Shown piece by piece: positions 42,721 to 61,063 of a DNA stretch of 64,000 bases. The stretch is from an uncultured Chloroflexia bacterium (GTDB taxonomy: Bacteria > Chloroflexota > Anaerolineae > CG2-30-64-16). A program made the position numbers and the translations under genes. The stretch covers positions 320,001 through 384,000 of the forward strand of contig CAVZDU010000001.1 in assembly GCA_963774265.1 (NCBI GenBank), in the 5' to 3' direction. The notes below the pieces were generated by a model, which was not told where the DNA came from, ran no database searches, and saw only the letters and a program-made list of their open reading frames with translations. Position 1 is the stretch's first letter; each line of letters opens with the position of its first letter.

Positions 42721-42743
42721 CTGACCAAGATCTGGAGCGCGAA

Positions 42744-44256: not shown

Positions 44257-45249
44257 TCATAGCCACCTCCTCAGCACAGCCGACAGCGCGGCAGCCAGAA
44301 TCGCCGTGACTGGAATCGTCGTCAGCCAAGCCGTGACAATCTGCCTGGCGGTACCCCAACGAACCTTGGAGACGCGCTCGGCCGAACCGACGCCCATAAT
44401 CGCCGAGCTGACGACCTGTGTCGTACTCACAGGGCCACCTATTAGCGCGGCCATGATGATGACCGAAGCCGAGGCAAACTGCGTGGTGAACCCATGGATG
44501 GGCCGAATTTTGTAGAACTTGCCGCCCAACGTCCGGATAAGCCGCCAGCCCCCGGTGGCGGTGCCGGCCGCGATGGCCCCCGCGCAGATTGCGATGACCC
44601 ACAGCGGCACGCGGAAGCTCGGTATCGATCCGGCCGAGACCAGCCCCAACGTAATGATCCCCATCGTCTTCTGCGCGTCGTTTGTGCCGTGGGAAAGCGC
44701 TAACGCCAACGCCGTCACGATCTGCCCCCGCTTGAAAAAAATATTGATGCCCGGAGTCGCTTCACGCGCCAGAAACAGCACCGTCTTCATCACCAGGTAG
44801 CCCGCGAGCAGGCCAAGGGGGGGTGAAATGGCGAGCGCCAACAATACTTTGCCTAGCCCGGCCAACCTCACGACGCCGAATCCACTGTCAACGATCGCCG
44901 CGCCGATCAGTCCGCCCACCAGCGCGTGAGATGAACTGGATGGAATGCCCAGCCACCAAGTGAACACGTTCCAGGTGATCGCGGCGATAAGCGCAGCCAC
45001 CACGACCACAAGCCGTATCTCGCCCTCATTCAGCACTTCGTGGCCGATGGTCGTGGCAACGGCGACCCCGAATAGGAATGGACCGACAAACTCTGCGATG
45101 GCCGTGATCGTCAACGCCTGCCGGCCCGTGAGAGCACGCGAGGCGATCATCGTCGCGACAATGTTTGAGCTGTCGTGAAACCCGTTCAAGAAGTCGAAGA
45201 CCAGCGCCAACACGATCAGCAACAGCAACTGCAAGGGGACTCCAAACAC
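44257..45249 (-). CDS. PiT family inorganic phosphate transporter
   Basis: NGFHDSSN, GIPSSSSHALVGG, HGTNDAQKTMG, PVSTT. Confidence 0.93.
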   Translation of the reverse strand: MFGVPLQLLLLIVLALVFDFLNGFHDSSNIVATMIASRALTGRQALTITAIAEFVGPFLFGVAVATTIGHEVLNEGEIRLVVVVAALIAAITWNVFTWWLGIPSSSSHALVGGLIGAAIVDSGFGVVRLAGLGKVLLALAISPPLGLLAGYLVMKTVLFLAREATPGINIFFKRGQIVTALALALSHGTNDAQKTMGIITLGLVSAGSIPSFRVPLWVIAICAGAIAAGTATGGWRLIRTLGGKFYKIRPIHGFTTQFASASVIIMAALIGGPVSTTQVVSSAIMGVGSAERVSKVRWGTARQIVTAWLTTIPVTAILAAALSAVLRRWL

Positions 45250-45252
45250 ACC

Positions 45253-46221
45253 CTACTCCTTGTTGTCGCGTTCCACGGTGACCAGGCCTCTTTCGGCCAA
45301 CCAACTCAAGCCGTCAGCGATCTGTTCCGCCGAGCTGGCATTCCGGAACTCGCAAGTCCGTAAGATGTCGGTCGGGAGATGACGCGCAACCATGTTCCAC
45401 CTCATCTCCCCGTATCCCACGGGCAGGTGGTCATCCATGCCGATGATGTCGTGCAGATGCACGCCGATCATCCTGTCCGCGAAGCGTGTGAGCCAGTCCT
45501 CGTGCAGGCTGTAGCCCTTGTACTCCGATTTTTCCGCATGGCCGATGTCATGCCAGTAGCCGACCGTTTCGCCAAACCCCGACGCGAGTAGCTCATCCAG
45601 TTCGTGAATCAACGGGATATCGAAGTAATGATCGCGGTTTTCCACTCCCAGCCGGACGCCGCGCGGCGCGGCGTATCTGGCCAGCTCACCCAGGCTACGC
45701 CGCACAGACGCCAGGTGCGCAGCGGCTCGCTCGCTGCGCGCGGCCATCATTATCGATTTGGCCTCCTCGTATGCGGGGGTGTCGCGTTTGCCTTCCTTGT
45801 AAAGACGCGTCAACACGGCTTCAAGCGACTCGTCCATGTTCACCCGGCCGGAGTGGACGATCACAACCCGCGCCCCCAGATCGTGGGCCAGGTCTATGCT
45901 GCGTCGAACGGCCTCAACGCCGCGCCGCCGGTCTGCTTCGTCGATCGCAGAAATCAGCCAATCTCGCTCCTTGAGCTCTGCCACCGACACATCCGATGGG
46001 CAAGGCTCATGGACGCTGGTGATGCGCCGGCCGTTGAGGTGCACGCTCTCGAGCATGGCCGAGTCGACGCCATGATTCAGCTCGAAGCACGTGAAACCGG
46101 CCGTTTGCCCGGCCTCAAAGAACTCACCAAAACGCGCAAACCGCTGGATGCCCCACATGGTAGACAGGGCCACATGACACGTTTTCACTGGCCGCACTTC
46201 GGTTGCTTCCCTATTTGGCAC
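45253..46221 (-). CDS. Sugar-phosphate isomerase/epimerase (xylose-isomerase-like TIM barrel)
   Basis: SVHEP, VHSG, GVENR, WHDIGH, HLHD...DHLPVGYG, EFR. Confidence 0.8.
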   Translation of the reverse strand: MPNREATEVRPVKTCHVALSTMWGIQRFARFGEFFEAGQTAGFTCFELNHGVDSAMLESVHLNGRRITSVHEPCPSDVSVAELKERDWLISAIDEADRRRGVEAVRRSIDLAHDLGARVVIVHSGRVNMDESLEAVLTRLYKEGKRDTPAYEEAKSIMMAARSERAAAHLASVRRSLGELARYAAPRGVRLGVENRDHYFDIPLIHELDELLASGFGETVGYWHDIGHAEKSEYKGYSLHEDWLTRFADRMIGVHLHDIIGMDDHLPVGYGEMRWNMVARHLPTDILRTCEFRNASSAEQIADGLSWLAERGLVTVERDNKE

Positions 46222-47437
46222 TTAGAATCTCACTGATCTCACGCGTGGCCCAAAGTGCAGCGCCGGTGGTGTCGACAACCATGTCGCATGCCTCCAGCTG
46301 CGGCAGGTAGCACTTCTGAGCCATCAGAAACTGCTCTCTGAAAAACCTGTTGCGGAAGTAGTTAGGTTCGTATTTCTTCCGATAATCGACGTCTCGTTTC
46401 CATTTCCGCTTCATCCTGACCGCATCATCAGTCAGATATACCACCTTGATCCCGATCAGGTGCGCAACATCACTCAGCAGAAACGGGAAATTGCCCTCGA
46501 CCAAGACGATATCGGCCGGTTCGATCTCGATCGGAGCGCATCCCGGCTTCAGATTGCCGGCCAGGTTATGGCTGGAGGTGGCGCAAACGAAATCGTATCG
46601 AGGAGTGGCGATTTTGTGTCCCTGGCAGATGGCTTCCAGACTCTGTTTGAGAAGCTCAAAATGGAGTGCCTCTTTGCCGAGCGTGTCGATTCCTGTCTCC
46701 TCCCGATAGTCCCGGTCTGTCAGGAAGTTGTCCATCTCAATGGACGCTACTCTTGCGCCCGCCTCTTCAAGCAAGCCGCGCAGGCGCTCGACGATCTCGG
46801 TCTTGCCAGCCGCGGTTGGCCCAGCGACGGCGAAGAGGACAGGCGTTCCTTTAGCCGCGATGAGTCTCCTGGCACTTTCAACAAAGAGCTGATCAACCTC
46901 CGCATTCGCGGCCCTAAAATCCCTGTAGCCAACACCCTGGTAGCGCTCGAAGCGCTTCTGTCGCTGCTCGAAGCTCCTGAAGGGCATGCCCCCAAGGTGC
47001 GCCAACACTCCGTCGGTGAAATAGACCGTGCGGTGCAGAAAGTAGAATCCTCGGATGTCGAAGTAAAAGTGTTCGCCGACCCACTCTAGTGAGTACTCGC
47101 CCGTGACCAAACCAACAAAGAGCACGCGCGTCAGCCTGGCAATGTTCTCATCCAGCACAATCCGGCCGTCGACGCGTGGCTTGAGCTGGATCCGCGCATA
47201 GAAATCACTGCTGTTGACCCGCTTCTCGATCTCCTCCGCCCTGTCGATCTGTACCGAGCCCCAGCCCCCCTCGTCGGGGTAAAGATTCTGCAACGCATAA
47301 CGAAACTCATAAAGTTCCAGGTCCTCGACGCCTGGATTGATCCGCCTCAACTTGTCATACAACGCTTCGGCGAACAAATCCTGATCGGCGAATAGGTTTG
47401 ACACCGGCAACTCGTCCTCCGCTACACTATGCACCAT
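46211..47437 (-). CDS. Uridine-kinase/PRK-like P-loop kinase with unrecognised N-terminal domain (paralog 2)
   Basis: AVAGPTAAGKT, IEMDNF, PRYDF, LVEGNF, RKWKRD; ~190-aa N-terminal extension. Confidence 0.75.
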   Translation of the reverse strand: MVHSVAEDELPVSNLFADQDLFAEALYDKLRRINPGVEDLELYEFRYALQNLYPDEGGWGSVQIDRAEEIEKRVNSSDFYARIQLKPRVDGRIVLDENIARLTRVLFVGLVTGEYSLEWVGEHFYFDIRGFYFLHRTVYFTDGVLAHLGGMPFRSFEQRQKRFERYQGVGYRDFRAANAEVDQLFVESARRLIAAKGTPVLFAVAGPTAAGKTEIVERLRGLLEEAGARVASIEMDNFLTDRDYREETGIDTLGKEALHFELLKQSLEAICQGHKIATPRYDFVCATSSHNLAGNLKPGCAPIEIEPADIVLVEGNFPFLLSDVAHLIGIKVVYLTDDAVRMKRKWKRDVDYRKKYEPNYFRNRFFREQFLMAQKCYLPQLEACDMVVDTTGAALWATREISEILSAK

Positions 47438-48632
47438 ACTTGCCTACGCGACCCGCGTTGGCAAGCGCAATCGGCATGATGTCCTTGGCCGGCAGCACTC
47501 CCAGGCTGCCTCGCGCACAAGCGCGCTCGCCGAACTCGCCGATGCCGTCTGGGCGCACGTGCGGGGCGTACAGCAGCGTCGGCACCGGATGCCAACTGTG
47601 CGATTTAAGCACGGCCGGCGATGAATGGTCGCCACTGACGATTACCACGTCTGGCCCGAGCGACAGCAGGCGCGGCATCAGCGCATCTACCTCCTCAATG
47701 ACGCGCACCTTGCCCGCGAAGTCGCCGCTCTCGCCTGCTGTGTCGGTCTGCTTGACATGCAGATAGAAGAAATCGAAATCTCTCCAATTCTTCTCCAGCG
47801 CGGCAAACTCGTCTGCAATTGTCACGCCCTGGACGGCCAGGGTCGTCATCCCCACGAGTTTGGCAACCCCGCGATACATGCCGTTCACCGCGATGGCGGC
47901 GGCACGGAGGCCGAAAAGCTCCGCATATTGAGGCACCGCGGGAAATCGGGCGAAACCGCGCAGCAGGATCATATTGGCGGGCTGCCTGTCCCGCAACAGC
48001 CGGCCCGCTTGTGTGATGAATTGATTTGCCAGCGCTGCGGCTCGTTCGGAGTCTGGCCTGAGCGCGTTCACCGACAGGGGCTTCACGCCGATCGCTTGTG
48101 GATCCGTCTCGGTCAGGGCATCGCTCAGGCCAGCCCCTCGCATCACAAAGGCGAAACGGTGCTCCTTGACCAGCTCGACAAAGCAGTCGGCGCCGTCGAG
48201 CCGGATCGTCCGCAATAACTCCGCCAGCTCCCGGCTCGCCTCGGTCGGCAGCCGCGCGGCGCGACGATCCGTCAATACCCCCGCCGCGTCAACCGTGCAG
48301 AAATTGCCGCGCGCGGCCACGTCGTCAGGTCCCAGTTCAAAGTCGACCCCGAGCGCCTCCAGCGCCCCGCGGCCGATCTCGTACTCGAGTGGATCGTAGC
48401 CGAATATGGCAAGATGTCCCGGACCGCTGCCCGGTGTAATGCCCGGCCCCACGGGAACGGTCAGCCCCAGCGCCGATTGCGCGGCCAGCGCGTCGAGATT
48501 GGGCGTGGCCGCAGTTTCCAACTCAGTCTTGCCGCCCGGCTCCAACGGCAATCCACCGAGCCCGTCCATGATAATCATCGCAATCTTCGTGCGGGCCGGC
48601 ACAATCAAGTCTTGCAGAAACCTGAGATTCAT
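47427..48632 (-). CDS. apgM: Cofactor-independent phosphoglycerate mutase, archaeal/ApgM type
   Basis: IIMDGLGG, TELETAATPNLD, TPGSGPGHLAIFGYDP, GRGALEA, RGNF, DRRAAR, HVKQTD, SGDHSSP, HSWHPVP. Confidence 0.88.
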   Translation of the reverse strand: MNLRFLQDLIVPARTKIAMIIMDGLGGLPLEPGGKTELETAATPNLDALAAQSALGLTVPVGPGITPGSGPGHLAIFGYDPLEYEIGRGALEALGVDFELGPDDVAARGNFCTVDAAGVLTDRRAARLPTEASRELAELLRTIRLDGADCFVELVKEHRFAFVMRGAGLSDALTETDPQAIGVKPLSVNALRPDSERAAALANQFITQAGRLLRDRQPANMILLRGFARFPAVPQYAELFGLRAAAIAVNGMYRGVAKLVGMTTLAVQGVTIADEFAALEKNWRDFDFFYLHVKQTDTAGESGDFAGKVRVIEEVDALMPRLLSLGPDVVIVSGDHSSPAVLKSHSWHPVPTLLYAPHVRPDGIGEFGERACARGSLGVLPAKDIMPIALANAGRVGKYGA

Positions 48633-48690
48633 CAGAATGCCCCCATCCCGAAGGTGACGCGATTCCGCAGCAGAAACGGGATGTGTCGTT

Positions 48691-49875
48691 CTAGAGGATT
48701 TCGGCCATTTCCGGCGTTACCCATATGGCTGCGTCGGTCGTATCAACAACAATGTCGCACACCTGCATTTGGGGCTGATAACAGTCCATGGCCCTCAGAA
48801 ACTGAGTCCTGAAGAAACGGTTGCGAAAGTAGTTGGGATCATACTTCTGCCGATAGTCAATATCGCGTTTCCATTTCCGTTTGAGCCTGATCGGATCATC
48901 TGTCAGGTACACCACTTTAACTCCGATGTAGTCAGCCAGCTCCTTGCTCTGAAATGGAAAATTGCCCTCAAGGAAAATGACATCAGCCGGCTCAATCTCC
49001 AGTGGAGCGCAGCCCGGCTTCAGGTTGCCGTCCAAATCGTGGCTGGAGACAGACGAAGTGTAGCGAGGAATAGCGATCCTTTGCCTTTGGATGATCGCCT
49101 GAAGGCTCTCCATAAAGAGTCCAAAATGGTAGGCTTCTCTCCCTAGCGAATTGATGCCCATCTCATCCCGATAGTCGTTGTCGAGAAGGAAGTTATCCAT
49201 CTCGATGGAGGTAACCTTTCTTCCTAGTTGCTCAAGCGCACATCGCAAGCGCGCGACGATCTCGGTCTTTCCAGCGGCCGTGGGCCCGGCAAGCGTGACA
49301 AGAATGGGCGTGCCCTTCGCTGCGACGAGCCTCTTGACACTCTCGATAAAGCACTGATCCACCTGGGCATTAGCCTCTTTGAAGGCTTTGTAGCCCACAC
49401 TCTGGCACCGTTCAAATCGCTTTTGCCCCTGATCGAAGCGCCTCCATGGCTCGCCGTCAAAATGCGCCAACACCTGATCCGTGAAATAGGTGGTGCGACT
49501 CAGGAAGAGAAAACCTCTGATGTCGAAATAGAAATGCGTTCGAACCCACTCTTCTGAGTAGTCTCCCGTGACCAGGCCCACGAAAAGCATGTCGGTCAAC
49601 TGCACGATGTTTTCGTCCAGCACAATCTTGCCGTCGACCAGCGGCTTAAGTTGGATGCCAACATAGAAGTCGCGCGTGCCCATCCGCAGTTCGATATCTG
49701 CCTGGGCATCCAGCTTTACAGACGCCCAGCCTCCGGGCTTAGGGCACAGGTTGTCCAGTGCGTAACGGAATTCGTAGAGTTCCATTTCCTCCACCGCTGG
49801 GGCAATCGACTTCATCTTCTCGTACAGGAGAGAGGAAAAAACATCGGGATTGGACAACATGTGCGATGCCGACAT
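48691..49875 (-). CDS. Uridine-kinase/PRK-like P-loop kinase with unrecognised N-terminal domain (paralog 1)
   Basis: TLAGPTAAGKT, IEMDNF, LEGNF, RKWKRD; colinear with 46211..47437. Confidence 0.75.
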   Translation of the reverse strand: MSASHMLSNPDVFSSLLYEKMKSIAPAVEEMELYEFRYALDNLCPKPGGWASVKLDAQADIELRMGTRDFYVGIQLKPLVDGKIVLDENIVQLTDMLFVGLVTGDYSEEWVRTHFYFDIRGFLFLSRTTYFTDQVLAHFDGEPWRRFDQGQKRFERCQSVGYKAFKEANAQVDQCFIESVKRLVAAKGTPILVTLAGPTAAGKTEIVARLRCALEQLGRKVTSIEMDNFLLDNDYRDEMGINSLGREAYHFGLFMESLQAIIQRQRIAIPRYTSSVSSHDLDGNLKPGCAPLEIEPADVIFLEGNFPFQSKELADYIGVKVVYLTDDPIRLKRKWKRDIDYRQKYDPNYFRNRFFRTQFLRAMDCYQPQMQVCDIVVDTTDAAIWVTPEMAEIL

Positions 49876-49886
49876 ACAGGTGCCTC

Positions 49887-52184
49887 CTAGCTCGCGACAA
49901 CCTGCCGCCCGATGCCGAACACAAACGCATCGTACGCTCGTTTGGTCTTGGCATAGTTGCCATTGCGATCGAGCGCGATGCCTCTCCCAACGCCCGAAAC
50001 GATTTGCCCGATGCCGATCTCGGCCACCCGGCGTCCCAGTTTCTCCAACAGCGCGGGCGCACTCCCCGGCTCAGTGCTGCGGCCGTCAAAGATCACATGC
50101 ACGTAGACGTCGTTCAAGCCATACGCCTTGGCCATGCGCAGTAGCGCCAGCGGATAGTCAATCGAGCCATGTGAGCTTCTTTCCGAGAGCAGGCCGATCA
50201 GGTGCAGGCTGGCCCCGCGCTGCCGGACGTCCGCTATGGTGCGCAACAAAACCTCGTTGGTGTAGAACGAGCCATCCTGCATCGCCAGGCCTAGCCGCAC
50301 GTCGTCCTGCAGCACCACGCGGCCCGCGCCGATGTTCATGTGACCGGCCTCTGAATTGCCTGGCTTGTCCGCCTGCAGTCCCGCCGCCTCGCCAGCAGCC
50401 TGCAACTGGGCAAGTCCATAGCGCTGCGTCAGTGCGTCCCAGGTCGGCGTCGCTGCGAGCCAGATCGGATTATTCTCGTCCTCCTTGCCGATACCCCAGC
50501 CGTCGAGGATGATGAGCAGCACGCGGCGCGCCCCTCCCCAGTCATGCTCGAGCGCCAGACTTGCGCCATCCATCGTTTGCGGCTGCGGGATGCCGAGCGC
50601 ATGCAGTACGGTCGGCGCGATGTCGGCCAGCTTGCCATTGCGCAGGCGCACGAGCGACGGCCCAGCCGGATCCAGCAGGAGGAACGGCACGGGGTTGGCC
50701 GTGTGCGCGACGTGGGGCGTGCCGTCAGGGGTGGTCAGCTCTTCCAGGTTGCCGTGGTCGGCGGTCACGAGGACGACATAGCCAGCGGCGAGCGCGGCGT
50801 CCACCACCTGCCCCAGCCGCGTATCTACGGCCTCGGCGCACGCGAGCTTGGCGGCGCGGTTAGCCGTGTGGCCGATAACGTCGCCGTTGGCGAAGTTAGT
50901 TACGATCAGATCGTAGTGATCGGCGATGCCGAGCGCCACCCCGGCGGAGACCTCCGCCAGGCTCAGCTCCGGCGCCTGTTCAAAGGGAATCCTGGTGGGC
51001 GAAGGGATGCAGACATCGTGCTCGCCGAAGAATGGCTGGCTATTCCCGCCGTTGAAGAAAAACGTGACGTGTGCGAATTTCTCCGATTCGGCGATACGCA
51101 GTTGGCGCAGACCGGCGCGGGCCACAGCCTCTCCCAGGGTGTCCCTGATCTTCGTCGGTGCGAAGGCCACCGGCAGGTCCTTGAATTTCTCGTGGTAGAG
51201 CGTCAGGATGACGAAGGGGAGGTTGCTGAAATCGCGGCGCGGAAAGCGATCGAACCCCCGCTCGGTGAATGCCTCGGTCAACTGGATCTGGCGTTCGCCT
51301 CGCCTGCAGCAAAAGATCACAGCGTCGCCATCCTCAATCCGGCCAATCGGGGCGCCCTGCGCGTCCACCAGAACCAACGGTTCGAGGGCGTAATCGGTTT
51401 CGCCCTCGCGATACAACTCCCTCACTCCCTCGGCCAGAGCAACAGCGTCGGACGGCACAGGACGTGACGGGAAGATCTCCAGCAGGTCGCTGAGCTTGTG
51501 GATGATGAGATCGGGCCGGTCTTCGTCCGGGACAGGTGCGTCGCGGTCGTCGGGACTCGCCAGGATGATCACACTCCCGAAGCCGGCCTTGCGTGTCCCG
51601 AGGACATCCCGGGCGGTGTTATCGCCTACGTAGGCGCATCGCGCCGGATCAACGCCAGCCAACCGCGCGGCTTCCTGGTAAATGGCCGGGTCCGGTTTGC
51701 GCTTCCCGAAGACGGACGAGAGGATGACCGACTTGAAATAGGGGGCAAGTCCGTCGGCCTCAAGCCAGTCGGGGATCTCCCGGCTGGTGATGACGTTGCT
51801 GATGATCCCCAGAATGTAGCCGCGGCGGTGCAGCTCGAGGATGACTTGCCGGGCATCTTCCTGCACCACCCGCCGCCCCATGGTCTGGCGGTACTGGTAG
51901 GTCAGCTCAACCGCCAGCCCCGCGATCTCGTCGTCCGGATAATCGGGCAGCAGCCAGCGCGTCCACAGCTCGGCTTCAGGGGCTTCGATCAAGTGCTCGG
52001 TCGCCCACTTTCGGTAGACCTGGTAGTGCCGGTCAATCTCCTGGCAGAAGGTCTCGGGGTCTACGTGAGTCCCGACCAGCGTGGCGATCTGCTGCCGCGC
52101 CCGCGCCTGATGCGCCTCGTCTTTCAAGAGGATGCGCAAGGTATTGCCGAGGTCCAGGAAAACGGCATCAATCTCAGGAGTCAT
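49887..52184 (-). CDS. HAD hydrolase fused to circularly permuted GpmI-type phosphomutase
   Basis: FLDLGNTL...KPDP...GD HAD, then GpmI C-half (ESEKFAHVTFFFNGG, NGDVIGH, TADHGN, DIAPT), then GpmI N-half (LIILDGWG, NSEAGH, DGRST). Confidence 0.88.
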   Translation of the reverse strand: MTPEIDAVFLDLGNTLRILLKDEAHQARARQQIATLVGTHVDPETFCQEIDRHYQVYRKWATEHLIEAPEAELWTRWLLPDYPDDEIAGLAVELTYQYRQTMGRRVVQEDARQVILELHRRGYILGIISNVITSREIPDWLEADGLAPYFKSVILSSVFGKRKPDPAIYQEAARLAGVDPARCAYVGDNTARDVLGTRKAGFGSVIILASPDDRDAPVPDEDRPDLIIHKLSDLLEIFPSRPVPSDAVALAEGVRELYREGETDYALEPLVLVDAQGAPIGRIEDGDAVIFCCRRGERQIQLTEAFTERGFDRFPRRDFSNLPFVILTLYHEKFKDLPVAFAPTKIRDTLGEAVARAGLRQLRIAESEKFAHVTFFFNGGNSQPFFGEHDVCIPSPTRIPFEQAPELSLAEVSAGVALGIADHYDLIVTNFANGDVIGHTANRAAKLACAEAVDTRLGQVVDAALAAGYVVLVTADHGNLEELTTPDGTPHVAHTANPVPFLLLDPAGPSLVRLRNGKLADIAPTVLHALGIPQPQTMDGASLALEHDWGGARRVLLIILDGWGIGKEDENNPIWLAATPTWDALTQRYGLAQLQAAGEAAGLQADKPGNSEAGHMNIGAGRVVLQDDVRLGLAMQDGSFYTNEVLLRTIADVRQRGASLHLIGLLSERSSHGSIDYPLALLRMAKAYGLNDVYVHVIFDGRSTEPGSAPALLEKLGRRVAEIGIGQIVSGVGRGIALDRNGNYAKTKRAYDAFVFGIGRQVVAS

Positions 52185-53604
52185 TGACCCTCAGTGGGAA
52201 GATATCCAGCAGCTCGCGGCACGAGCGAATGATCACGTCGGGCATGTTGTCGCCGGTGGGAGGCTCCCTCTTCTTCTTGGCCTCATCCATCAGGATGATG
52301 ATCATCCCGAAGCCGGCCCGCCGGGTGCCCTCGACATCACGAAGTGGATTGTCACCGACATAGACGCATCGCGCCGGCTCGACGCCGATCCGCCGCGCGG
52401 CCTCCCAGTAGATCTCGGGCCCAGGTTTCCGGTTTCTGACCTTGGACGATAGCACCACCGCCTGGAAGTAGCCGGTGAGGCCGTCGGATTCGATCCAATC
52501 CGGGATCTCGGTCTCGGTGATGGTATTGGCGATGATCCCCAGGCGGTAGCCGCGCCGGTTCAACTCCAATACGGTTTCTTTTACGTCAGGCCGCGGGACG
52601 CGCCGCCCATCGTGATCGCGCCACAGTCTCGTGAGCTTTCCTGCCAGAGGGCCGATCTTCGCGGCCGGGAAATCGGGCAGCATGAAACGGGTCCACAATT
52701 CTTTCTCGGATGCTTCGGTCAGGGTCTCAAAAGACCACTTTCGGTAGGCTTTCCATCGTTCATCCAACTGTGCGAAGAACGTCGTCTCGGGGGTTTCTTG
52801 CGCTCCCACCAAAGACCTGAGCTGCTGCCTGGCCTCAGCCTGAAACGTCGCGTCTTCCACCACGATGCGCAGGGTGTTGCCGACGTCTAAAAAGATGGCT
52901 TCGATGTCCGGAATTCTCGCCGCAGCCTGTGGCGCTGCTGGTCGCTCGAATATGGGAACGTCAAGCAGGTCCGGCAGCGTCTCGGCGTAATAGTCAGCCC
53001 TGGCTTGCGGGTCGTATCGCACCGCCACGGTGGCCAGCCCTACTTGTTTGGCCCCCTCAAGCTCCCTGGCATCATGACCTACGAAGGCCGATTCAACCAC
53101 CGAGAGCCGCGCTTGCTGGACTGCGTTCAGGAAGATGGCAGGATCTGGTTTGCGCACGCCCAATGTTGAGGAGCACGCCACGACATCGATATATTCGGCA
53201 ACCCCTACTTGCTCAAGCCAATCCATTTTCTGTTCGAGCGGATAGATTGTGTCTGTGACAATGCCCAATAGAAAGCCGCGCCGCTTCAGCACCGCCAAGG
53301 TCTCTGGGCCACCCGGGACCGCGCGCACTGCGTTCGCGTGCGCCAGGATCTTCGCGACCAGCGCTGCGCGCTCTTCCGATCTGTCCACGCGATGGGTCCG
53401 GAGTACCTGGTCCCAATAGGCGACGGGATCGACGAAGCCCACGTTCGCACCTTGGTACATACTCTCGAGGAGCGCCTTATCCTCGGCAGAGAGGGGACCT
53501 GCGTAGCCCGCTTCCATGAGGATGCGGGCAGCGGCGTCATCCGTCCGTTCATCCCGCTCATAAAACACATCGGCTGCATCGAAGAAAATGCCTTTGATCG
53601 CCAT
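52174..53604 (-). CDS. Tandem double-HAD hydrolase
   Basis: Domain 1 FFDAADVF...KPDP...VGHD; domain 2 FLDVGNTL...KPGP...VGDNPLRD. Confidence 0.85.
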   Translation of the reverse strand: MAIKGIFFDAADVFYERDERTDDAAARILMEAGYAGPLSAEDKALLESMYQGANVGFVDPVAYWDQVLRTHRVDRSEERAALVAKILAHANAVRAVPGGPETLAVLKRRGFLLGIVTDTIYPLEQKMDWLEQVGVAEYIDVVACSSTLGVRKPDPAIFLNAVQQARLSVVESAFVGHDARELEGAKQVGLATVAVRYDPQARADYYAETLPDLLDVPIFERPAAPQAAARIPDIEAIFLDVGNTLRIVVEDATFQAEARQQLRSLVGAQETPETTFFAQLDERWKAYRKWSFETLTEASEKELWTRFMLPDFPAAKIGPLAGKLTRLWRDHDGRRVPRPDVKETVLELNRRGYRLGIIANTITETEIPDWIESDGLTGYFQAVVLSSKVRNRKPGPEIYWEAARRIGVEPARCVYVGDNPLRDVEGTRRAGFGMIIILMDEAKKKREPPTGDNMPDVIIRSCRELLDIFPLRVNDS

Positions 53605-53667
53605 CTCAATCGCCTCTTGCCATCCACCCCGGATGATGGATCGCCGTGCGGGCACTAGCACCCGTCG

Positions 53668-54432
53668 TTAGTGGTCTGTGGTCGACAGGGTTAGGGCCGC
53701 CACGACTTCCATAAGATCGTGAATTACGTGGTCCGGCGGTTCGGTGTCCGTTTCCCGGTCCAGTTTGTCGGTGAGAAACGACTTGATCAGAATCACAAGC
53801 CCATAACCGGCGCGACGCGCGCCGCTCACGTCCCGCGACACAGTGTCGCCCACGTAGGCGCATTCGATCGGCAGCAGTCCCAGCAGCCGGGCCGTTTCGA
53901 GGAAGATGTGCGGGTTGGGCTTGCGCCAGCCGAAGTTCGAGCTTGTCACGACGGGATCGAAGAAATGAGCGATGCCGTACTCGGCCAGTTTCACCTGTAC
54001 CATCCGGCGGCTGATGATGTTGGAAATCACCGATAGTCGCAAGCCGCGTTCGCGCAACGCCTCCAGAGCGACAGGCGCTTCCGGCCGCAGGGTGCGAATA
54101 TAGAAATGTGTCTCGTAGAAGAACGTGAGGTCTTCGGCGGCTTCCAGGAGACGATCTCTGGGCAGGCCGTGATCGGGAAAGATGTATTCCGTCCAGACCT
54201 GCCCCGGTGAGAGTTCGACCTCGCTAATCTCGCGCCAGCTTGTGTATGCCTTCATACCGGAAAGGACCGTCGCCTGCAATTCGGGCAGCGACAGATCCGG
54301 AGCGAGGCCCATCGCCGCCAGCAGTCGCTTCAACCCGCACGTGGCTTCGGTGCGCGTCGCATCATCGTAATACAGGTTTTCGAGCGTGCCGCCCAGGTCA
54401 AAGACGACGGCCTGGATGGGGTGGATCGCCAT
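53668..54432 (-). CDS. HAD family hydrolase
   Basis: FDLGGTL, ISN, KPNPHIF, YVGDTVSRD. Confidence 0.88.
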   Translation of the reverse strand: MAIHPIQAVVFDLGGTLENLYYDDATRTEATCGLKRLLAAMGLAPDLSLPELQATVLSGMKAYTSWREISEVELSPGQVWTEYIFPDHGLPRDRLLEAAEDLTFFYETHFYIRTLRPEAPVALEALRERGLRLSVISNIISRRMVQVKLAEYGIAHFFDPVVTSSNFGWRKPNPHIFLETARLLGLLPIECAYVGDTVSRDVSGARRAGYGLVILIKSFLTDKLDRETDTEPPDHVIHDLMEVVAALTLSTTDH

Positions 54433-54536
54433 GTTCAGATAGTCCTCTTTCAGAGGTGAGTTCTAAGCAGGGTCTCTGGACACAGAACATGGTGCGTCCG
54501 TGTCCAGAGAAGCTCATTTTCGGGGCCGTCCCACTC

Positions 54537-55868
54537 CTACGGAGCGGTAAGCAGACTCACTGCCCAGAAGTCGCGTATTTGGCTGTTGTTCTTATACGCG
54601 AATAGATCATCGCTCGGCCAGAGCGAGACTTCAGATAGCGGAGGCATGCCTTCGGCAACGGTAAGGCCTTCGGCCGGTGGGTAGACACCGATCTTGTTCC
54701 AGGGATCGAAACCATCCTCCGAGAGAGCGAATTTGATGAACAGTTTGGCAGCATTGGGGTGCGCAGACTTGTTGGCAATGGCCAGATAGTTGGCTTTCAA
54801 CACACCGCTCACTGGTTTGAGAGTGAGACAGGGCGCCATGGCCAATTCTCCATCCATCGTAGTCTCATAGCTGTCCCAACCGGTCCAGCCATACCCGGGT
54901 TCCACTGCTTTGTCCATGCCCAGCGTGGCATAGGCCGCGTCGACCTCATCGCCGCCGGGCTGGATGCCGGGTTTGTTCTGGGCCAGCTTCTTCAGGAACA
55001 GGTAACCTGCATTGGAGACGTCCTTGCTATACGCGGGGTCGGTGGTCCAGTCTTTGCCGTAGAATTCCTGGTAGTTCGCGGCCATTTGATCGGCGTGTTC
55101 TACGATCAGGGCGATCTTGGCTGTGGTGCTGGAATCAGCGATGGGATCCTCCATGTAGAACTTGCCCTTTAGTTTCGGTTCGGTCAGCTCCCACCAGCTC
55201 TTGAGCGGGCAGCCGTCCGGGTTGATCTCCTGGTTGTAGCCTATGACATCCGCTGCGCGGCGCGAAAGCGCATACGGCCGTTCTGGGGTCACCTCCTTTT
55301 CCACCACACCCGGGGGGAGGTACCACCAGATCCATTGATTGGGCATAAACTCGCCGTACAGCAGATGCCCGTCGCTGTTGAACCAGACATCCCCGACGAC
55401 GTTCCCGGCTTCCTGCTCTGCCTGCATCTTGACGGCGATGTCATCGGTGTCACCACCCTCCAGTGCGATGTCGGGGTACAGCTCATGCCATTTGTCGAGT
55501 AGCTTCTCAAACTTGGAAGAGTTGGCGTAGACAACCACTTTCCCTTCCTTCTTTGCTGCCGCTTCGACGGCCGCCCAGTCCTCCTCGGCGGGCTGATACG
55601 GTCCCAGGCCATTTGCTTTCGCCCATTCCTCCGCAGCAGTGAGAGTGGGTCCTGGTACGGCGGTCGGCGGGGCTGCGGTCGGCGGGGCTACGGTTGGCGG
55701 TACGGCGGTCGGCGCCGGGGCCGCGGGAGCAGCGGTCGGCGGCACGGCGGTGGGCGGCACGACGGTCGGCGCCGGGGCCGCGGGAGCAGCGGTCGGCGCC
55801 GGGGAGGCGCAGGCCGCCAACAAGGTGATAAGCAAGAATGCGAGAGTAATCCTACTGAACCCTTTCAT
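54537..55868 (-). CDS. ABC substrate-binding lipoprotein (AfuA/FbpA-like cluster)
   Basis: Lipobox LAAC, P/A/T linker, AAKKEGKVVVY, DVWF, AHPNAAKLFIKF. Confidence 0.85.
   Translation of the reverse strand: MKGFSRITLAFLLITLLAACASPAPTAAPAAPAPTVVPPTAVPPTAAPAAPAPTAVPPTVAPPTAAPPTAVPGPTLTAAEEWAKANGLGPYQPAEEDWAAVEAAAKKEGKVVVYANSSKFEKLLDKWHELYPDIALEGGDTDDIAVKMQAEQEAGNVVGDVWFNSDGHLLYGEFMPNQWIWWYLPPGVVEKEVTPERPYALSRRAADVIGYNQEINPDGCPLKSWWELTEPKLKGKFYMEDPIADSSTTAKIALIVEHADQMAANYQEFYGKDWTTDPAYSKDVSNAGYLFLKKLAQNKPGIQPGGDEVDAAYATLGMDKAVEPGYGWTGWDSYETTMDGELAMAPCLTLKPVSGVLKANYLAIANKSAHPNAAKLFIKFALSEDGFDPWNKIGVYPPAEGLTVAEGMPPLSEVSLWPSDDLFAYKNNSQIRDFWAVSLLTAP
55706..55798 (-). repeat. 36-bp exact repeat (57-bp period) in the Pro/Ala/Thr linker
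   Basis: CGGTCGGCGCCGGGGCCGCGGGAGCAGCGGTCGGCG at 55706-55741 and 55763-55798. Confidence 0.8.
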
Positions 55869-55971
55869 GTCTCCTCCTGGTTACCAGAGAATAGGTTGTC
55901 CACAGGACGCGTGATCGATCGAGGGCCGACGCTTCATCTGAGATTGGGTTGTTCAATAACTCCTCCTTTGG

Positions 55972-57055
55972 TCATGGCGAAATCAGATCGCCGCTCGCTT
56001 TGTCGTACAGGTTCAGAGTCGCGGGGTCGAAGCTCAGCCAGATCCGCTCATCCATCTTGGTCTTGCTGATGCCCATTACTTTGACTGTGACCTCAGTGTT
56101 TTCCAGGCGCGCTGATGATGGTTGAGTCGGCTCCCGACGGCAGAACCGAATATGCGGTAAACTCCGCAGCGCCCGGGATGGGTGTTGTCGAGATGGCGAT
56201 ATCTTCCGGCCGGGCGGCCACCACCACTTCTCCGGTCGCGTGGTGCGTGTTGAGGGTGACCTTGAATCTGCCCAAGTCGACCGAATTATGCCCATCCACG
56301 ACACCATTCAGCAGGTTCACTTTGGGGTTGCCGATAAAATCGGCCACAAACAGGTTGGCCGGATAGTGATACACGCGGTCGGGGGTGTCTAATTGCTGCA
56401 GGACGCCCTCCTTCATCACTGCAATCTGGGAAGACATGGTCAACGCTTCCACCTGGTCGTGTGTGACATAGACCGTAGTCGCCCCGGAAACATGGTGCAG
56501 GTGTTTGATTTCCGCCCGCATATCCATGCGCAAGCGTGCGTCCAGGTTGGACAGTGGCTCATCCATCAAGAAGACCTTGGGGCGGTAGGCCAGCATGCGG
56601 GCGAGAGCGATGCGCTGTTGTTGCCCGCCGCTCATCTCGCGCGGATAGCGGTCCGCGTACCCCTCCATTTGCACTTCGGCCAGGGCTTCTCTTGTCCGCT
56701 TTTCAATTTCGGCCCTGGGCTGTTTCTGGATCTCCAGCGCGAAGGTCATGTTTTTTTGGACCGTCATGTGTGGCCAGAGGGCATAGTTCTGAAAGACAAG
56801 ACCCAGGTCGCGCTTGCCGGGAGGTAGCGAGATGCCCCGCTCGCGAGAAAAGACCAGCTTGTCCCCGATAAGGATCTCTCCTCCATCTGGGTCTTCCAGG
56901 CCAGCCAGGCAGCGCAGCAAGGTCGTCTTGCCGCATCCGGAAGGGCCCAGAAGGGTCAGGAAGCTTCCGGATTCGACAGTCAGGCTGACACCATTGACAG
57001 CGACGACGCTGCCGAAACGCTTGGTGAGGTTGCGAATCATGATGGTTGTTGACAC
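55972..57055 (-). CDS. ABC transporter ATP-binding protein, FbpC/PotA type (frameshift near 56105)
   Basis: GPSGCGKTT, FQNYALWPH, MSGGQQQR, MDEPLSNLD, VTHDQ; C-terminal TOBE in alternate frame. Confidence 0.92.
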
Positions 57056-57068
57056 GGTTGCCTCTCCC

Positions 57069-58904
57069 TTACATTCCAAGACCCTTCTTAAGACTGCCGC
57101 CCCGGATTCGACTGATGAAAAAGTAACCAATTGCAACGAGCACGATCAGGATCAAGATGACAGCGTTCGCCATCTGGGCATCGCCGTTTTCGGTATAGAA
57201 CATGGTCTGGCTGGCGAGCACTTGGGTTTGTGGCGTGACCAGCAGGATGATCAAAGACAGTTCGCGCATGGTGGTGATAAACGTCAGCAGGAATCCGGCG
57301 ACAAAGCCGCTGCTGGTGAGCGGAAAGATAATGCGCCTGAAACGCTGCCAGATGTTGGCGCCGGCGACCATGCCCGCCTCCTCCAGTTCCCGGCCGACCT
57401 GCATCATGGCCGAAACCCCCGAACGGGAGGAATAGGGGATATGTTTGGCCACCGAGACTACCACCAACAGGGTGAAAGTCCCGTACAACGCTGGGATCGG
57501 CCCCAGTGGCTTAATGAACATCGCAATGTAGACTGCGCCAAAGGCAATGCCGGGGATCACGTACGGAATGAAGGCCAATTGCTCGACCAGTTTACTTAGC
57601 CGGGTACCCCGGCCTTTGACAATAGCATAGCCGAGAATAATACCCAGGAGGGCCGTGAATAAGGCCGTCCATATCGAAAGCCGGATGGAGTTCCAGGCGG
57701 TCATGTAGATTTTCGGGTTGCGCAGGACTCCAGGCTCTCCATGGTTATAAATCGTGTTGCGCGCTCCAATCCAGTGCTGTAAGGAGAGATTGCTCAGGCT
57801 GTAATTCCCATCCTGCAACATCAATGTGGAATAGACCAGAAGGCCCAACGGAACGACGATGACAAAGATCTGAAACACGATCGCGGCGATCAGCGCAACA
57901 CGTTTCATCTTTCCCAGCTTGTTCACCTGCGCAACGAAGCCTCGTCCGCCAATCGTCTCGTAGCTCTTGCGCGTCCCGACCAATCTCTGGTTGAGTCGAA
58001 TAATAGTCATAGACATTAGAACCAATACGATTGCCAGCACAAAGGCATCCGCTTTATCTCCAACGCCTATACTGCCGCGGATCATGGTGGCCACTACATA
58101 GTACCTGACCGGTGTTCCGAGGATATTTGGCCCACCGAAGGTGCCCAGCACCTTGGAAAAAGTCATGATGAAACCCGAGAGGATCGCCGGCAGGACGAGC
58201 GGGAAGGTGATCTTGCGCAGAATGCGCCAACGGCTGGCGCCCGCCAATTCTCCAGCTTCTTCCAGGTTGGAATCAATTGACATCAACGCCGCCGACACGA
58301 ACAGGAAAAAGAACGTGTAGTAGTGCAGCGCGCTGCAGATGATGATGGGCACCGGCCCGTACGATAGCCAGCTTGGGGGGCTTTGTCCCACCAGGTACTC
58401 AAAAACTCCCGACGTTCCGCCAGAAAGCCTGTTCTTGAAAAACACGAGCCAAGCCTGGGCCAGGGTCCAGGATGGCATAATGTAGGGGATCACCGCCAGT
58501 TGATTGACGAGCTTTCTGCCCGGCATATCGGTGCGGACGACCAACCAGGCCAAGGAACCGCCGATCAAAAGCGCAAGCAGGGTGGCTCCAATTGCTATGG
58601 TCATCGAATGCTGAAGCGGGGTATACATGTAGATTTTCCCGAAAACGCCCGTAAGCATCCTGACATAGTGAAAAATCGTGAGTCCGCCGACCTCAGCGTC
58701 CGGGACGCGGGTGAGATCATGAGGCTGCCAGGTCACCGTAGTCGCAACCATGCGAAACAAAGGTATGATGACCATGTAGAACATCAAGACCAGCATGATC
58801 AAGGACAGAACGACTCGGGCGCTCGTCAGCCAGCGGATGAACCTTCTGGAGGAGGCAAGGAGTCGCAACGAAAACAGTTGCCGAGACGCCGGAGTGACAG
58901 CCAT
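57069..58904 (-). CDS. ABC permease, fused double-domain AfuB/FbpB type
   Basis: RTDMPGR, two EAA motifs (LEEAGELAGAS, LEEAGMVAGA), many TM helices. Confidence 0.92.
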   Translation of the reverse strand: MAVTPASRQLFSLRLLASSRRFIRWLTSARVVLSLIMLVLMFYMVIIPLFRMVATTVTWQPHDLTRVPDAEVGGLTIFHYVRMLTGVFGKIYMYTPLQHSMTIAIGATLLALLIGGSLAWLVVRTDMPGRKLVNQLAVIPYIMPSWTLAQAWLVFFKNRLSGGTSGVFEYLVGQSPPSWLSYGPVPIIICSALHYYTFFFLFVSAALMSIDSNLEEAGELAGASRWRILRKITFPLVLPAILSGFIMTFSKVLGTFGGPNILGTPVRYYVVATMIRGSIGVGDKADAFVLAIVLVLMSMTIIRLNQRLVGTRKSYETIGGRGFVAQVNKLGKMKRVALIAAIVFQIFVIVVPLGLLVYSTLMLQDGNYSLSNLSLQHWIGARNTIYNHGEPGVLRNPKIYMTAWNSIRLSIWTALFTALLGIILGYAIVKGRGTRLSKLVEQLAFIPYVIPGIAFGAVYIAMFIKPLGPIPALYGTFTLLVVVSVAKHIPYSSRSGVSAMMQVGRELEEAGMVAGANIWQRFRRIIFPLTSSGFVAGFLLTFITTMRELSLIILLVTPQTQVLASQTMFYTENGDAQMANAVILILIVLVAIGYFFISRIRGGSLKKGLGM

Positions 58905-58923
58905 GCTTATACTCCTACGCTTG

Positions 58924-59800
58924 TCAAGTCATGCTGGGGAGTTCGAAATGATAAGCCACGCGCATTCTCTCCATCCGTTCAAGCGCGCCAAGGCTTTCCT
59001 GCGGCCGCGCCATTGCAACAGCCAGGATCAAGGCATTCACGATCGCCATCGGCACGGTCAACGAATGAAAAGTCGATACAGGTCCTCGGCGTGCGGCAAG
59101 CACTACATCCACCTTGTCTCGGAATGCCGCACCCAGGGTATCGGTGAGCAAAATACTGTGACAACCGACAGTGTGCGCGTGTTCCACCGTAGCGGCCAAC
59201 TCGGTGCTCTTGTGATGAAATCCTGTGATCACGACCGCATCTTGCGGCTGAAGCAGTTGAAGCTTTTCGACCATGTCGCGGCCCGATTCGGTGATAGCGA
59301 TGGCATCGATGCCGAAGCGCCGCAATCGAAGCTCAAGCAAATCGGCCAGGATGGCCGAGGGTCCACCGCCGCGCACAAACACCCGGCGGCCATTCAGGAC
59401 GATCTCGACCGCCCGATCGAAATCAGCCGTGGAGACGCTGCGCTCGGCCTCAGCCAGGTATTGTATTTCCATATCGAGGACTTTAGGGAGGATGTGGCCC
59501 TGGCTGCCTGAAAGCTCGGCGAGTTTATGTTGGAGCCGGGCGGCCGGGGTAACCTGACCCCGGTAAAGATCCTGGATGGCGCGCTTAAGCTTCAGGAAAG
59601 CCATCGTAGCCAATAACCTTGGCGAAGCGCACTACCGTGGCTTCGCTCATTTGGAGGCGGCGCGCGAGGTCGGCCGCGGAGAGAAACGCGGCCTCATCAT
59701 AGCTCGTTAGCAGGTAAGTAGCGATGCGCTGTTGGCTCTTGGAAAGGTCCAACATGCGCGCTTCGAGTTGACGGCGAAAACCGGCAAGTTCCTCGTCCAT
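58924..59800 (-). CDS. RpiR/MurR family regulator (HTH + SIS; frameshift near 59605)
   Basis: LSKSQQRIATYL, MSEATVVRFAK, SIS domain GGGPS, LLTD. Confidence 0.88.
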
Positions 59801-59870
59801 GAGTACTCCCGAGTCCTCAAAAGAGCTCTTGCGTGGATAATCAGGAAGCACGACCGCCAAATGATGCAAG

Positions 59871-59911
59871 ATTATACCACATATTAATTCAGAATGCAAG
59901 AGAGATTTCAT
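59871..59911 (-). promoter_or_regulatory. Promoter of the RpiR operon with candidate RpiR box
   Basis: TTGCAT-N17-TATAAT with TGn; ATGAAATCTCTCTTGCAT pseudo-palindrome overlaps the -35. Confidence 0.6.
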
Positions 59912-59950
59912 GTCAGAATCTTCTCTTGACAACCGCGATGCCCTGGTAGT

Positions 59951-59994
59951 ATACTCTGACCGTCTTGCACACGTGTGCAAGACGGTCAGAGTAT
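59951..59994. promoter_or_regulatory. 44-bp perfect palindrome with central LacI-type operator
   Basis: ATACTCTGACCGTCTTGCACACGTGTGCAAGACGGTCAGAGTAT equals its own reverse complement; TTGACA at 59926 upstream. Confidence 0.75.
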
Positions 59995-60055
59995 GGAGTA
60001 ACAAGGCCCGCATTTCCATCAGCCAGCCCGCTCGTTCGGAGGAGTCAGGAGTGTC

Positions 60056-61063
60056 GTGAAGACCTCCATCAAGGATATTGCCCGGGCTGCCGGCATCTCC
60101 CATTCAACGGTCTCCAGGGCGCTGAACGACAGCCCCCTGGTCAACACCGAAACGAAGGCGCGCGTCCGGCGCCTGGCGCAGGAGTTGGGCTACTCGCCCG
60201 ACGCGGCCGCGCGCAGCCTCGTCAGCGGCCGGACACGCACGGTCGGGGTGGTGGTCACAACCATCGCGGACCCGTTTGTCGCGGTTGTCATGGAGGGCAT
60301 CGAGCGCACGGCCTACGCATGCGGCTATTCCCTGATCCTCGCCGCGTCGCACAACGAACCGCAACGCGAGATCGCAGCAGTCGAGATGCTGCGATCCAAG
60401 CGTGTTGACTCAGTGATCGTGACATCGTCGCGCGTCGGCACGCTGCACCAGGAGCGGCTCGGTTCCGCGGGCGTGCCGGTGATCCTGCTCAACAGCCACA
60501 GCCAGCAAAAGATGCCCAATGCATACTCCGTGCGGGTCGATGACATACACGGCGGCCGACTGGCCACCGAGTATCTGCTCGGGCTTGGTCACCGGCGCAT
60601 CGCCCACGTGGCCGGCCTTGAAGGGCACAGCGATAGCAACGACCGACTCGACGGGTACCGGAGCGCTCTGGACGGGGCCGGCATCGCCTTTGATCCGGCG
60701 TATGTCGTAAGCGGGACCGGCCGGCTCGATGGCGGCCGCGAGGCGCTGCCGGCACTCCTGGAGCTGCGCGAACGGCCCAGTGCCGTCTTCTGCTACAACG
60801 ATATGACCGCAATCGGGCTGCTCTCTGCCGCGCGGGCTGCGGGGGTGGCTGTGCCGCGTGACCTGGCGGTGGTCGGATTTGATGACATCCCATGGGCCGC
60901 GCACGTCACGCCGGCCCTCACCACGGTCGCACAGCCGATGTTCGAGCTCGGCGAGCGCGCAATGAACATGGCTCTCGTGCTCATGAGTCACAAGGGAATC
61001 GCCCCCTGCGATGTGACGGATGTGATCCTGCAGGGACAGTTGATCGTGAGAGAATCCACTTAA
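60056..61063 (+). CDS. LacI family transcriptional regulator
   Basis: SIKDIARAAGISHSTVSRALN, YSPDAAARSL, NDMTAIG, GFDD, LTTV, LIVREST. Confidence 0.95.
   Translation: MKTSIKDIARAAGISHSTVSRALNDSPLVNTETKARVRRLAQELGYSPDAAARSLVSGRTRTVGVVVTTIADPFVAVVMEGIERTAYACGYSLILAASHNEPQREIAAVEMLRSKRVDSVIVTSSRVGTLHQERLGSAGVPVILLNSHSQQKMPNAYSVRVDDIHGGRLATEYLLGLGHRRIAHVAGLEGHSDSNDRLDGYRSALDGAGIAFDPAYVVSGTGRLDGGREALPALLELRERPSAVFCYNDMTAIGLLSAARAAGVAVPRDLAVVGFDDIPWAAHVTPALTTVAQPMFELGERAMNMALVLMSHKGIAPCDVTDVILQGQLIVREST

Follow-up and report, generated by a model that had tools for sequence, protein, structure and literature searches.

The window analysed here, a 64-kb stretch of contig CAVZDU010000001.1 from an uncultured Chloroflexota bacterium, carries twelve co-directional minus-strand open reading frames (ORFs) that run from position 59800 to position 44257 and encode an ABC importer, phosphatase-like HAD domains, two phosphomutases, two kinases and a phosphate transporter. 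Our favoured reading, which we judge to have about an even chance of being right, is that this locus takes up an inositol phosphate (InsP), removes or edits its phosphates and supplies the inositol catabolism encoded next to it. The locus is widespread in soil and sediment Chloroflexota. Its position, a common operator and its gene content link it to inositol catabolism, and classical phytases were not found in the five genomes searched for them.

Families were assigned to the window proteins with Pfam and NCBIfam profile models. The features are as follows.

58924..59800, minus strand: RpiR-family regulator (HTH_6 and SIS domains); start ATG at 59800; Pfam HTH_6 53.7 bits, SIS 31.6 bits
57069..58904, minus strand: fused two-domain ABC permease, 611 aa, of the FbpB/ThiP/AfuB/PhnU2 class; two BPD_transp_1 stretches (Pfam)
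56093..57136, minus strand: ABC ATPase; ABC_tran 119 bits (Pfam)
54537..55868, minus strand: lipoprotein substrate-binding protein, 443 aa; lipobox LAAC; a weak SBP_bac_11 as the only Pfam match
53668..54432, minus strand: HAD domain 1, motif I FDLGGT (translation); Pfam Hydrolase/HAD_2
52174..53661, minus strand: tandem HAD domains 2 and 3, motif I FDAADV and LDVGNT (translation); two HAD_2/Hydrolase stretches
49887..52184, minus strand: HAD domain 4 (LDLGNT) fused to a circularly permuted cofactor-independent phosphoglycerate mutase (iPGM); alignment to 1EJJ
48691..49875, minus strand: kinase 1, an orphan N-domain (residues 1 to about 185) and a P-loop domain of the UK/PRK/PanK fold; PF00485 58.6 bits, residues 193-379
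47427..48632, minus strand: ApgM-type phosphomutase; NF003160 555.8 bits against a cut-off of 468
46211..47437, minus strand: kinase 2, a paralogue of kinase 1; PF00485 66.3 bits
45253..46221, minus strand: AP_endonuc_2 (xylose-isomerase-like) TIM barrel; Pfam 70.7 bits
44257..45249, minus strand: PiT (PHO4) phosphate transporter; PHO4 (PF01384) 292.7 bits against a cut-off of 33.7
59951..59994, no strand: 44-bp perfect palindrome in the divergent LacI/RpiR intergenic region, probable LacI-family operator, core TTGCACACGTGTGCAA
60056..61063, plus strand: LacI-family regulator (Pfam LacI and Peripla_BP), first gene of a neighbouring, predicted myo-inositol uptake and catabolism operon

By their ORF coordinates most neighbouring genes lie -11 to +224 nt apart; the exception is a 68-nt overlap at the ATPase, due to a long TTG-start call. 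Alignments of the ATPase, which is UgpC/PhnT2-like (326-332 bits, under the cut-offs), start at about residue 30, and its true start is probably some 25-30 codons 3' of the listed TTG. An earlier note on this DNA had described twelve genes, a good many of them overlapping or almost so, as a candidate pathway for import and phosphate remodelling of a phosphorylated metabolite, and all twelve are in place with families that match. Its four phosphatase-like domains are four HAD domains, with the correction that the second Asp of motif I is missing in every one, and its two phosphomutases and two kinases are the permuted iPGM, ApgM and a pair of paralogous PF00485 kinases. The protein that it called a TIM-barrel isomerase does have a TIM barrel; the isomerase label is not established. 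NCBIfam matches for this barrel are weak (CbiR, 26 bits; IolE, 21 bits), and its best PDB sequence match is MJ1311 (E = 3.7e-7).

The gene set is conserved. A one-genome-per-species scan gave 79 loci, and a separate genome search added two more (G076 and G148); the tally of that search also contains G272, flagged as unpublished, on which nothing here relies. Searched with the window proteins (tblastn), these 81 related loci show the set throughout, so chance clustering was rejected. The joining of an Afu/Fbp-class ABC importer to several phosphotransfer enzymes, already pointed out in the earlier note, is a property of one conserved operon-like unit. No paper describing this gene set was found in the literature searched, in line with that note's statement that it knew of no such operon. 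Carriers are nearly all Anaerolineae or Chloroflexota metagenome-assembled genomes (MAGs), with one cultured organism among them, Levilinea saccharolytica KIBI-1 (L076).

Forty-five of the 81 loci have complete flanks of ±10 kb. Within this full-flank subset the binding protein and the permuted iPGM are each present in 40 loci, the permease in 38 (64-88% identical across them), RpiR in 37, ApgM in 35 and the TIM barrel in 32. PiT was counted in 21, the flank limit often cutting it off; 19 related loci have a DUF47/PhoU_div gene ahead of it. There is one kinase copy in 29 of the full loci and two in 16; four HAD-domain equivalents occur in 19, five in nine and six in five, and the HAD is fused to the permuted iPGM in 13. 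Two layouts were found. One is merged, as in the window; in the other, which is split, LacI faces HAD-HAD-(permuted iPGM)-ApgM-kinase, and RpiR-ABC-HAD-HAD-HAD-TIM-(DUF47)-PiT comes after. Among 301 sampled genomes of the window's class the kinase occurs in fifteen, representing 12 of 176 genera and none of the nine genomes of the window's own family, a patchy distribution typical of an accessory catabolic island.

What lies beside these loci points to inositol. The other ORFs of at least 180 aa from all 81 loci were clustered and representatives scanned. The recurrent neighbours include an MFS transporter (24 loci), UxaE (21), DUF47 (19), a UxuB-like mannonate oxidoreductase (17), IolG (14), a divergent PfkB (10), a LarA-like hexonate epimerase (nine, with five further loci holding a truncated form) and an IolE-like protein (seven), while IolN (four), IolB (three), IolD (three) and MMSDH (three) are rarer. 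One or more inositol-pathway genes stand within 10 kb of the cluster in 35/81 loci and in 31/45 full loci; counting only models above their cut-offs, the numbers are 17/81 and 15/45. These neighbours span two non-homologous pathway types, the Thermotoga type and the classical Bacillus type, in differing arrangements, which argues for more than one inherited juxtaposition.

One such neighbouring operon is that of G076. There a divergent operon headed by LacI encodes IolM (525 bits, cut-off 450), IolN (310, cut-off 245), IolO (340, cut-off 300) and UxaE (488), and the IolG scores 430.7 bits; judged by these matches, the operon is a Thermotoga-type myo-inositol pathway. Downstream of LacI, the window's own genome encodes two Zn-dependent alcohol dehydrogenases (Zn-ADHs), a ROK kinase and a sugar ABC system, along with IolG, IolN/IolM and a TIM barrel. 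Here IolN reaches 254.5 bits against its cut-off of 245, only the N-terminus of IolM was seen, joined to IolN, and a fragment of IolG scores 295.5 bits (TIGR04380), under the cut-off of 355.

The two facing operons appear to share an operator. The 44-bp palindrome at 59951-59994 overlaps the end of a promoter-like site at 59926-59955, and its core, allowing up to three mismatches, is found between LacI and the first cluster gene in 25 of the 26 loci with LacI. In 24 of these 25 it is 10-30 bp from the LacI start. The core had 28 hits in total, compared with 0-21 for palindromes built from shuffled half-sites. Because of this recurrence, one LacI-type regulator probably controls both the inositol operon and the facing cluster module.

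The divergent PfkB gene, seen in 10/81 loci and missing from the window, encodes a full-length homologue of TM0415 (E = 2.2e-36 to 1vk4) and is co-directional with the cluster, inside it or at its end. TM0415 is presented in PMC5931981 as a pyrophosphate (PPi)-dependent myo-inositol kinase that is encoded in the T. maritima inositol cluster and whose physiological role is unclear, and PMC3750489 reports no growth of T. maritima on free inositol. An RpiR-family regulator of iol genes is known from Caulobacter (CC1297), in a paper that also raises inositol phosphate transport (PMC2597717).

Classical phytases (PF02333, PF14566, PF00328) were found in none of the five cluster-bearing genomes searched, which are 84-99% complete. 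InsP use in these bacteria would then need a different route, so the result is neutral to weakly supportive. Among the substrates proposed in the earlier note, inositol phosphates gain strong support in context from the adjoining iol operons, the common operator and the TM0415-type kinase, and 2,3-bisphosphoglycerate (2,3-BPG) and its cyclic form (cDPG) have no contextual support.

The binding protein has the LAAC lipobox, a Pro/Ala-rich linker and a conserved core, and its AF2 model has a pLDDT of 89. The nearest solved fold is the Mg-citrate binder MctA (E = 1.7e-14, 18% identity), followed by the glucose 6-phosphate (G6P) binders VcA0625 (E = 1.2e-12) and AfuA, and then by P5PA and FbpA/FutA; FbpA, FutA and PotD-type proteins, which bear on the Fe3+, thiamine or polyamine binding that the earlier note named as a refutation, are weak fold neighbours. 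Against AfuA the sequence match has an E of 0.029, and the Foldseek match (E = 2.2e-12, TMq 0.53, 16% identity) ranks below MctA. These neighbours place the protein in an anion, metal-chelate and phospho-ligand class. The permease has PhnU2 as its best NCBIfam match, at 156 bits far under the cut-off of 593.

The HAD domains keep the nucleophile Asp and motifs II-IV. Motif I reads DLGGT, DAADV, DVGNT and DLGNT in the window; among homologues DxG(N/G)T dominates, the nucleophile is kept, and the position two residues further on (D+2) is Gly or Ala throughout. E. coli YihX, a glucose-1-phosphatase, has Gly at D+2 as well (DLGNV).

The two kinases (394 and 408 aa) are 64% identical, and PF00485 (cut-off 22) matches their C-terminal halves. 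They have the P-loop GPTAAGKTE and the catalytic-Asp motif EMDNF, and the AF2 model has a pLDDT of 92. Structure matches from Foldseek and VIA-align, which cover residues of about 133-394 only, give PanK (Z 17.2), YGR205w (Z 13.9) and GLYK (Z 13.7), with PRK and UK, as fold neighbours of the C-terminal domain. A search of the N-domain (about 185 residues) against 1.84 billion representatives returned its own family alone (99 hits), and a protein-atlas search with it gave one cluster at 0.83, below lead level. In a metagenome-derived collection of 5.8 billion proteins the kinase has 2385 relatives at E <= 1e-10, and every named one is called a 'uridine kinase'.

Several observations weigh against the inositol phosphate reading. 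No iol-related gene lies within 10 kb in 14/45 full loci. In the class sample IolG is present in 11/15 kinase-bearing and 142/286 other genomes, only a modest enrichment and thus a weak discriminator; the four kinase-bearing genomes that lack it all belong to genus g179, where the cluster neighbours are LacI, an Opp-like ABC system and GH130/GH94-type genes instead of iol genes. The related loci are also kin, and counts of them overstate independence. Turning to the proteins, all four HADs lack the D+2 acid/base Asp of typical sugar- and polyol-phosphate phosphatases, and no basic character is seen in the kinase N-domain. W/Y/N/D/E/Q make up most of the binding protein's invariant residues, only about four being basic; a polyol that carries one or a few phosphates, perhaps complexed with metal, suits this better than free InsP6. 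InsP6 itself is an unlikely ligand, since neither the binding protein nor the kinase N-domain is polybasic. Of the earlier suggestion of inositol polyphosphates or phytate, the context favours the InsP class, and the non-polybasic invariant residues speak against the fully phosphorylated form. Finally, both mutases look like genuine phosphoglycerate mutases (PGMs): in the permuted iPGM the nucleophile, the metal ligands and most of the basic residues at the substrate site are retained, and ApgM passes the equivalog cut-off of NF003160.

This last point is the core of a phosphoglycerate-type explanation, which we consider unlikely. It holds that the locus imports 3- or 2-phosphoglycerate, 2,3-BPG, cDPG or a glycerate conjugate, that the mutases are true PGMs and the kinases glycerate kinases, and that the HADs trim. 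The circular permutation claimed for the GpmI-like protein was borne out residue by residue against 1EJJ: residues 252-544 correspond to 1EJJ 218-509 and residues 554-759 to 1EJJ 5-210 (387.7 bits), with the catalytic Ser, the metal ligands and most substrate-site Arg/Lys residues kept. This order, which departs from the collinear GpmI arrangement (phosphatase N-strand, transferase, phosphatase), is retained in related loci. The protein scores 466 bits with TIGR01307 (cut-off 330.65), its two pieces being singly under that cut-off in the genome search (277.1 and 192.4 bits), and ApgM is likewise above its own model's threshold. GNSEAGH occurs in 65/65 and TADHGN in 60/62 homologues of the permuted iPGM. 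The kinase fold neighbours include D-glycerate 3-kinase (6ckg, Z 13.7; 7xpc, Z 12.7) alongside YGR205w.

Against this, the substrate-site motif DGRD, whose Asp has a role known from the 1EJJ literature, is replaced by DGRST in 68 of the 68 permuted-iPGM homologues covering the site, and the sequence match between kinase and GLYK spans the P-loop alone (E = 0.72). Housekeeping PGMs are also encoded elsewhere, which makes the cluster mutases dedicated paralogues. A search for such a separate enzyme, proposed in the earlier note, found a GpmA-type dPGM on contig 9 of the window's own genome (225.5 bits, cut-off 81.7) and a second ApgM elsewhere in G076 and in G391. The cluster ApgM is 66-77% identical to its cluster orthologues and 54-56% identical to the second copies in G076 and G391. 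On sequence grounds both mutases are cluster-specific extra copies, and we rejected the simple explanation that they are the housekeeping PGMs. The recurrent neighbours include inositol genes but none related to glycerate or cDPG, and a phosphatase, a kinase and a mutase acting on glycerate alone would, we infer, form a futile cycle.

We also doubt that the system is a generic scavenger of hexose, pentose or uronate phosphates similar to AfuABC, controlled by RpiR, whose ligands would be dephosphorylated or isomerised for the adjoining sugar operon, the inositol neighbourhood being frequent and incidental. RpiR/SIS regulators sense sugar phosphates, and the binding-protein fold neighbours include the G6P binders VcA0625 and AfuA. 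A few loci add a PHP phosphatase and a 1-phosphofructokinase-like PfkB (TIGR03168, 264.6 bits against 216.4), and in g179 the cluster adjoins GH130/GH94-type genes in genomes where IolG is missing. On the other side stand the operator held in common with the LacI/iol operon, the recurrence of two non-homologous inositol pathways as neighbours and the TM0415-type inositol kinase inside the cluster of ten loci. Structurally, moreover, the binding protein matches a metal-citrate binder best, and all of its matches are weak (18-19% identity, TMq 0.5-0.58).

Nucleotide or nucleoside salvage, with the HADs as nucleotidases, phosphopentomutase-like shifting of sugar phosphates and re-phosphorylation by a uridine-kinase-like enzyme, would suit the database name of the kinase, its best PDB sequence matches (uridine kinases, E = 1.1e-9) and weak HAD matches to YjjG and pyrimidine 5'-nucleotidase models, but it is very improbable, given that the two kinases fall far under the cut-offs for udk (NF004018, 58.7 and 62.2 bits against 180) and PRK (NF005655, 63.8 and 75 bits against 236), that the recurrent neighbours include no nucleoside phosphorylase, hydrolase or deaminase, and that the mutases match PGM models and not DeoB (21.8-33.9 bits).

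If the inositol phosphate reading is correct, the RpiR-controlled ABC system, with its lipoprotein binder of the Fe/citrate/sugar-phosphate class, would import an inositol phosphate, with a lower or metal-chelated InsP or an inositol phosphodiester being likelier than free phytate. The four to six paralogous HAD domains would strip phosphates position by position. The permuted iPGM and the ApgM paralogue could shift phosphate between neighbouring hydroxyls, making resistant isomers processable, and the P-loop kinases, alongside a TM0415-type PPi-dependent kinase in some loci, might phosphorylate inositol or an intermediate, or run in reverse. PiT, together with DUF47 in many relatives, would handle the released phosphate, and free inositol would enter IolG-dependent catabolism. 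Stepwise removal, migration and re-addition of phosphates, as the earlier note envisaged, is likewise inferred.

A more specific version, which we offer tentatively and think improbable as it stands, is a cytoplasmic route, independent of phytases, in Chloroflexota that are abundant in soils and sediments. Here, once the ABC system has imported the substrate, the two mutases, members of the alkaline-phosphatase superfamily, would 'walk' phosphates round the inositol ring to positions from which HADs lacking the acid/base residue can remove them. The two-domain kinases, with TM0415-type PPi kinases in some lineages, would work reversibly, and a share of the phosphoryl groups would go to ADP or Pi, conserving energy that hydrolysis would lose.

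The RpiR gene needs a correction. Its HTH_6 and SIS domains are both present, as the earlier note had it, but this assembly breaks the reading frame: an additional base at 59591 (a +1 frameshift) separates an HTH ORF from a SIS ORF (window 59585-59613). The reading GFPEA* becomes GFPELKRAIQDLY once one base is removed. Three contigs of close relatives from public runs (X1-X3), with coverage of parts of 58900-60100, span the site, all without the extra base, and G076 has an intact orthologue of 295 aa (L023:14785-15672), so the break is probably an assembly error or a strain-specific lesion.

Similar breaks were seen elsewhere. The Zn-ADH gene 3' of LacI (window 61080-62256) is split into 61080-61340 and 61330-62256, which resembles another indel; its C-terminal piece has 85-89% identity in tblastn to L033, L069, L070, L073 and L086, compared with 40-75% for cluster proteins. 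In the same genome IolG is a 225-aa fragment, IolN is joined to the IolM N-terminus in an 819-aa ORF, and the GpmA-type dPGM falls into three pieces, of which one contains a TGA. These genes, which look broken by frameshifts or a stop, lie at L104 (G000:C1:383001-400000) 6524-9720 and at G000:C9:119164-119896. The assembly appears rich in indel errors, and the loci L040, L046, L068 and L075 from long-contig MAGs are similarly fragmented.

Some related loci depart from the usual gene content. In L091, L097 and contig C4 of G566 the two-domain kinase stands alone, no other part of the cluster lying within ±10 kb, and the kinase-bearing contig of G566 has no metalloenzyme-type mutase. Four short kinase contigs (L039, L051, L052 and L090) are binned as Chitinophagales, Syntrophothermus, Bacteroidota and Aminicenantes MAGs, which could be mis-binning or gene transfer. 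In 24 loci with the split layout (e.g. L041:8637-9965) ApgM and the kinase are separated by an EntS-like MFS gene that is missing from the window. A gene for a PHP (HisJ-like) phosphoesterase separates the kinase from RpiR in 5/81 loci (e.g. L041:11207-12889), and in L041 it is followed by the 1-phosphofructokinase-like PfkB gene. At the PiT end of the window a GlcD-like FAD-linked oxidase (42687-44159; TIGR00387, 490 bits, under the cut-off) and an amidohydrolase (41341-42720) converge on the cluster; elsewhere they are not conserved beside it (2/81 and 0/81 loci, respectively). Further away, at 36644-38347, is a 567-aa aldo/keto reductase with a fused C-terminal 4Fe-4S dicluster domain.

Inositol phosphates are a major organic-phosphorus pool in soils and sediments, and their known microbial use relies on a few secreted or periplasmic phytase families. 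If our reading is true, the cluster would add a new uptake-and-processing route and give Anaerolineae an ecological role in the turnover of phosphorus and carbon. It could also account for TM0415, whose role is unclear, and for the failure of T. maritima to grow on free inositol. New enzymes are there to be characterised in any case: a naturally circularly permuted iPGM with a fused HAD, a battery of HADs without the D+2 residue and a two-domain kinase family with an orphan domain all appear to be undescribed. The cultured carrier L. saccharolytica KIBI-1 makes the question directly testable.

Among known systems, the closest in context is the T. maritima inositol regulon (IolG, IolM, IolN, IolO, InoEFGK and TM0415). 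The binding protein of its InoEFGK transporter reportedly prefers inositol phosphate. The operons neighbouring the cluster in the window and in G076 encode IolG/IolM/IolN/IolO/UxaE-type enzymes, and a TM0415 homologue is part of the cluster in some loci; the regulon as described, however, is without a HAD battery, PGM-type mutases, UK-like kinases and PiT. Classical phytases (histidine acid, beta-propeller and PTP-like) share only the presumed substrate class, and the route proposed here would be cytoplasmic and follow import. The importer resembles AfuABC of Actinobacillus, as presented in PMC4546632, in its fused double permease, single ATPase and cluster-D binding protein, in a ligand that is probably a phosphorylated compound, and in having AfuA among the fold neighbours of its binder. 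It differs in that this binder is a 443-aa lipoprotein with a long linker, has MctA as best fold match and is only marginally similar to AfuA.

The enzymes show the same mixture of likeness and difference. Compared with GpmI of Bacillus stearothermophilus (1EJJ), the permuted protein keeps the nucleophile Ser in GNSExGH, the metal ligands in DxxGH, DHGN and AHT, and the substrate motifs RxxR and EK(F/Y)xHVTFF, but its new termini lie inside the transferase domain, a HAD is often fused to it, DGRST replaces DGRD and it is not the housekeeping PGM. The cluster ApgM belongs by score and catalytic motifs to NF003160, the archaeal-type iPGM family also found in Thermus, Deinococcus and Thermotoga-like bacteria, and forms a cluster-specific orthologue group within it, with AVNGMYRGV where the second copies have A(M/V)YPMY(R/K)G. 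The HADs share with TIGR02253/REG-2-type phosphatases the C1-capped HAD-IA fold, the nucleophile Asp and motifs II-IV; they fall under the family cut-offs of all but generic HAD-IA models, have Gly or Ala at D+2 and come as four to six paralogues per locus. Lastly, the kinases share the fold of their C-terminal domain with UK, PRK, PanK and GLYK P-loop kinases and are set apart from them by the extra N-domain of about 185 residues, which had no outside relatives among the 1.84 billion representatives.

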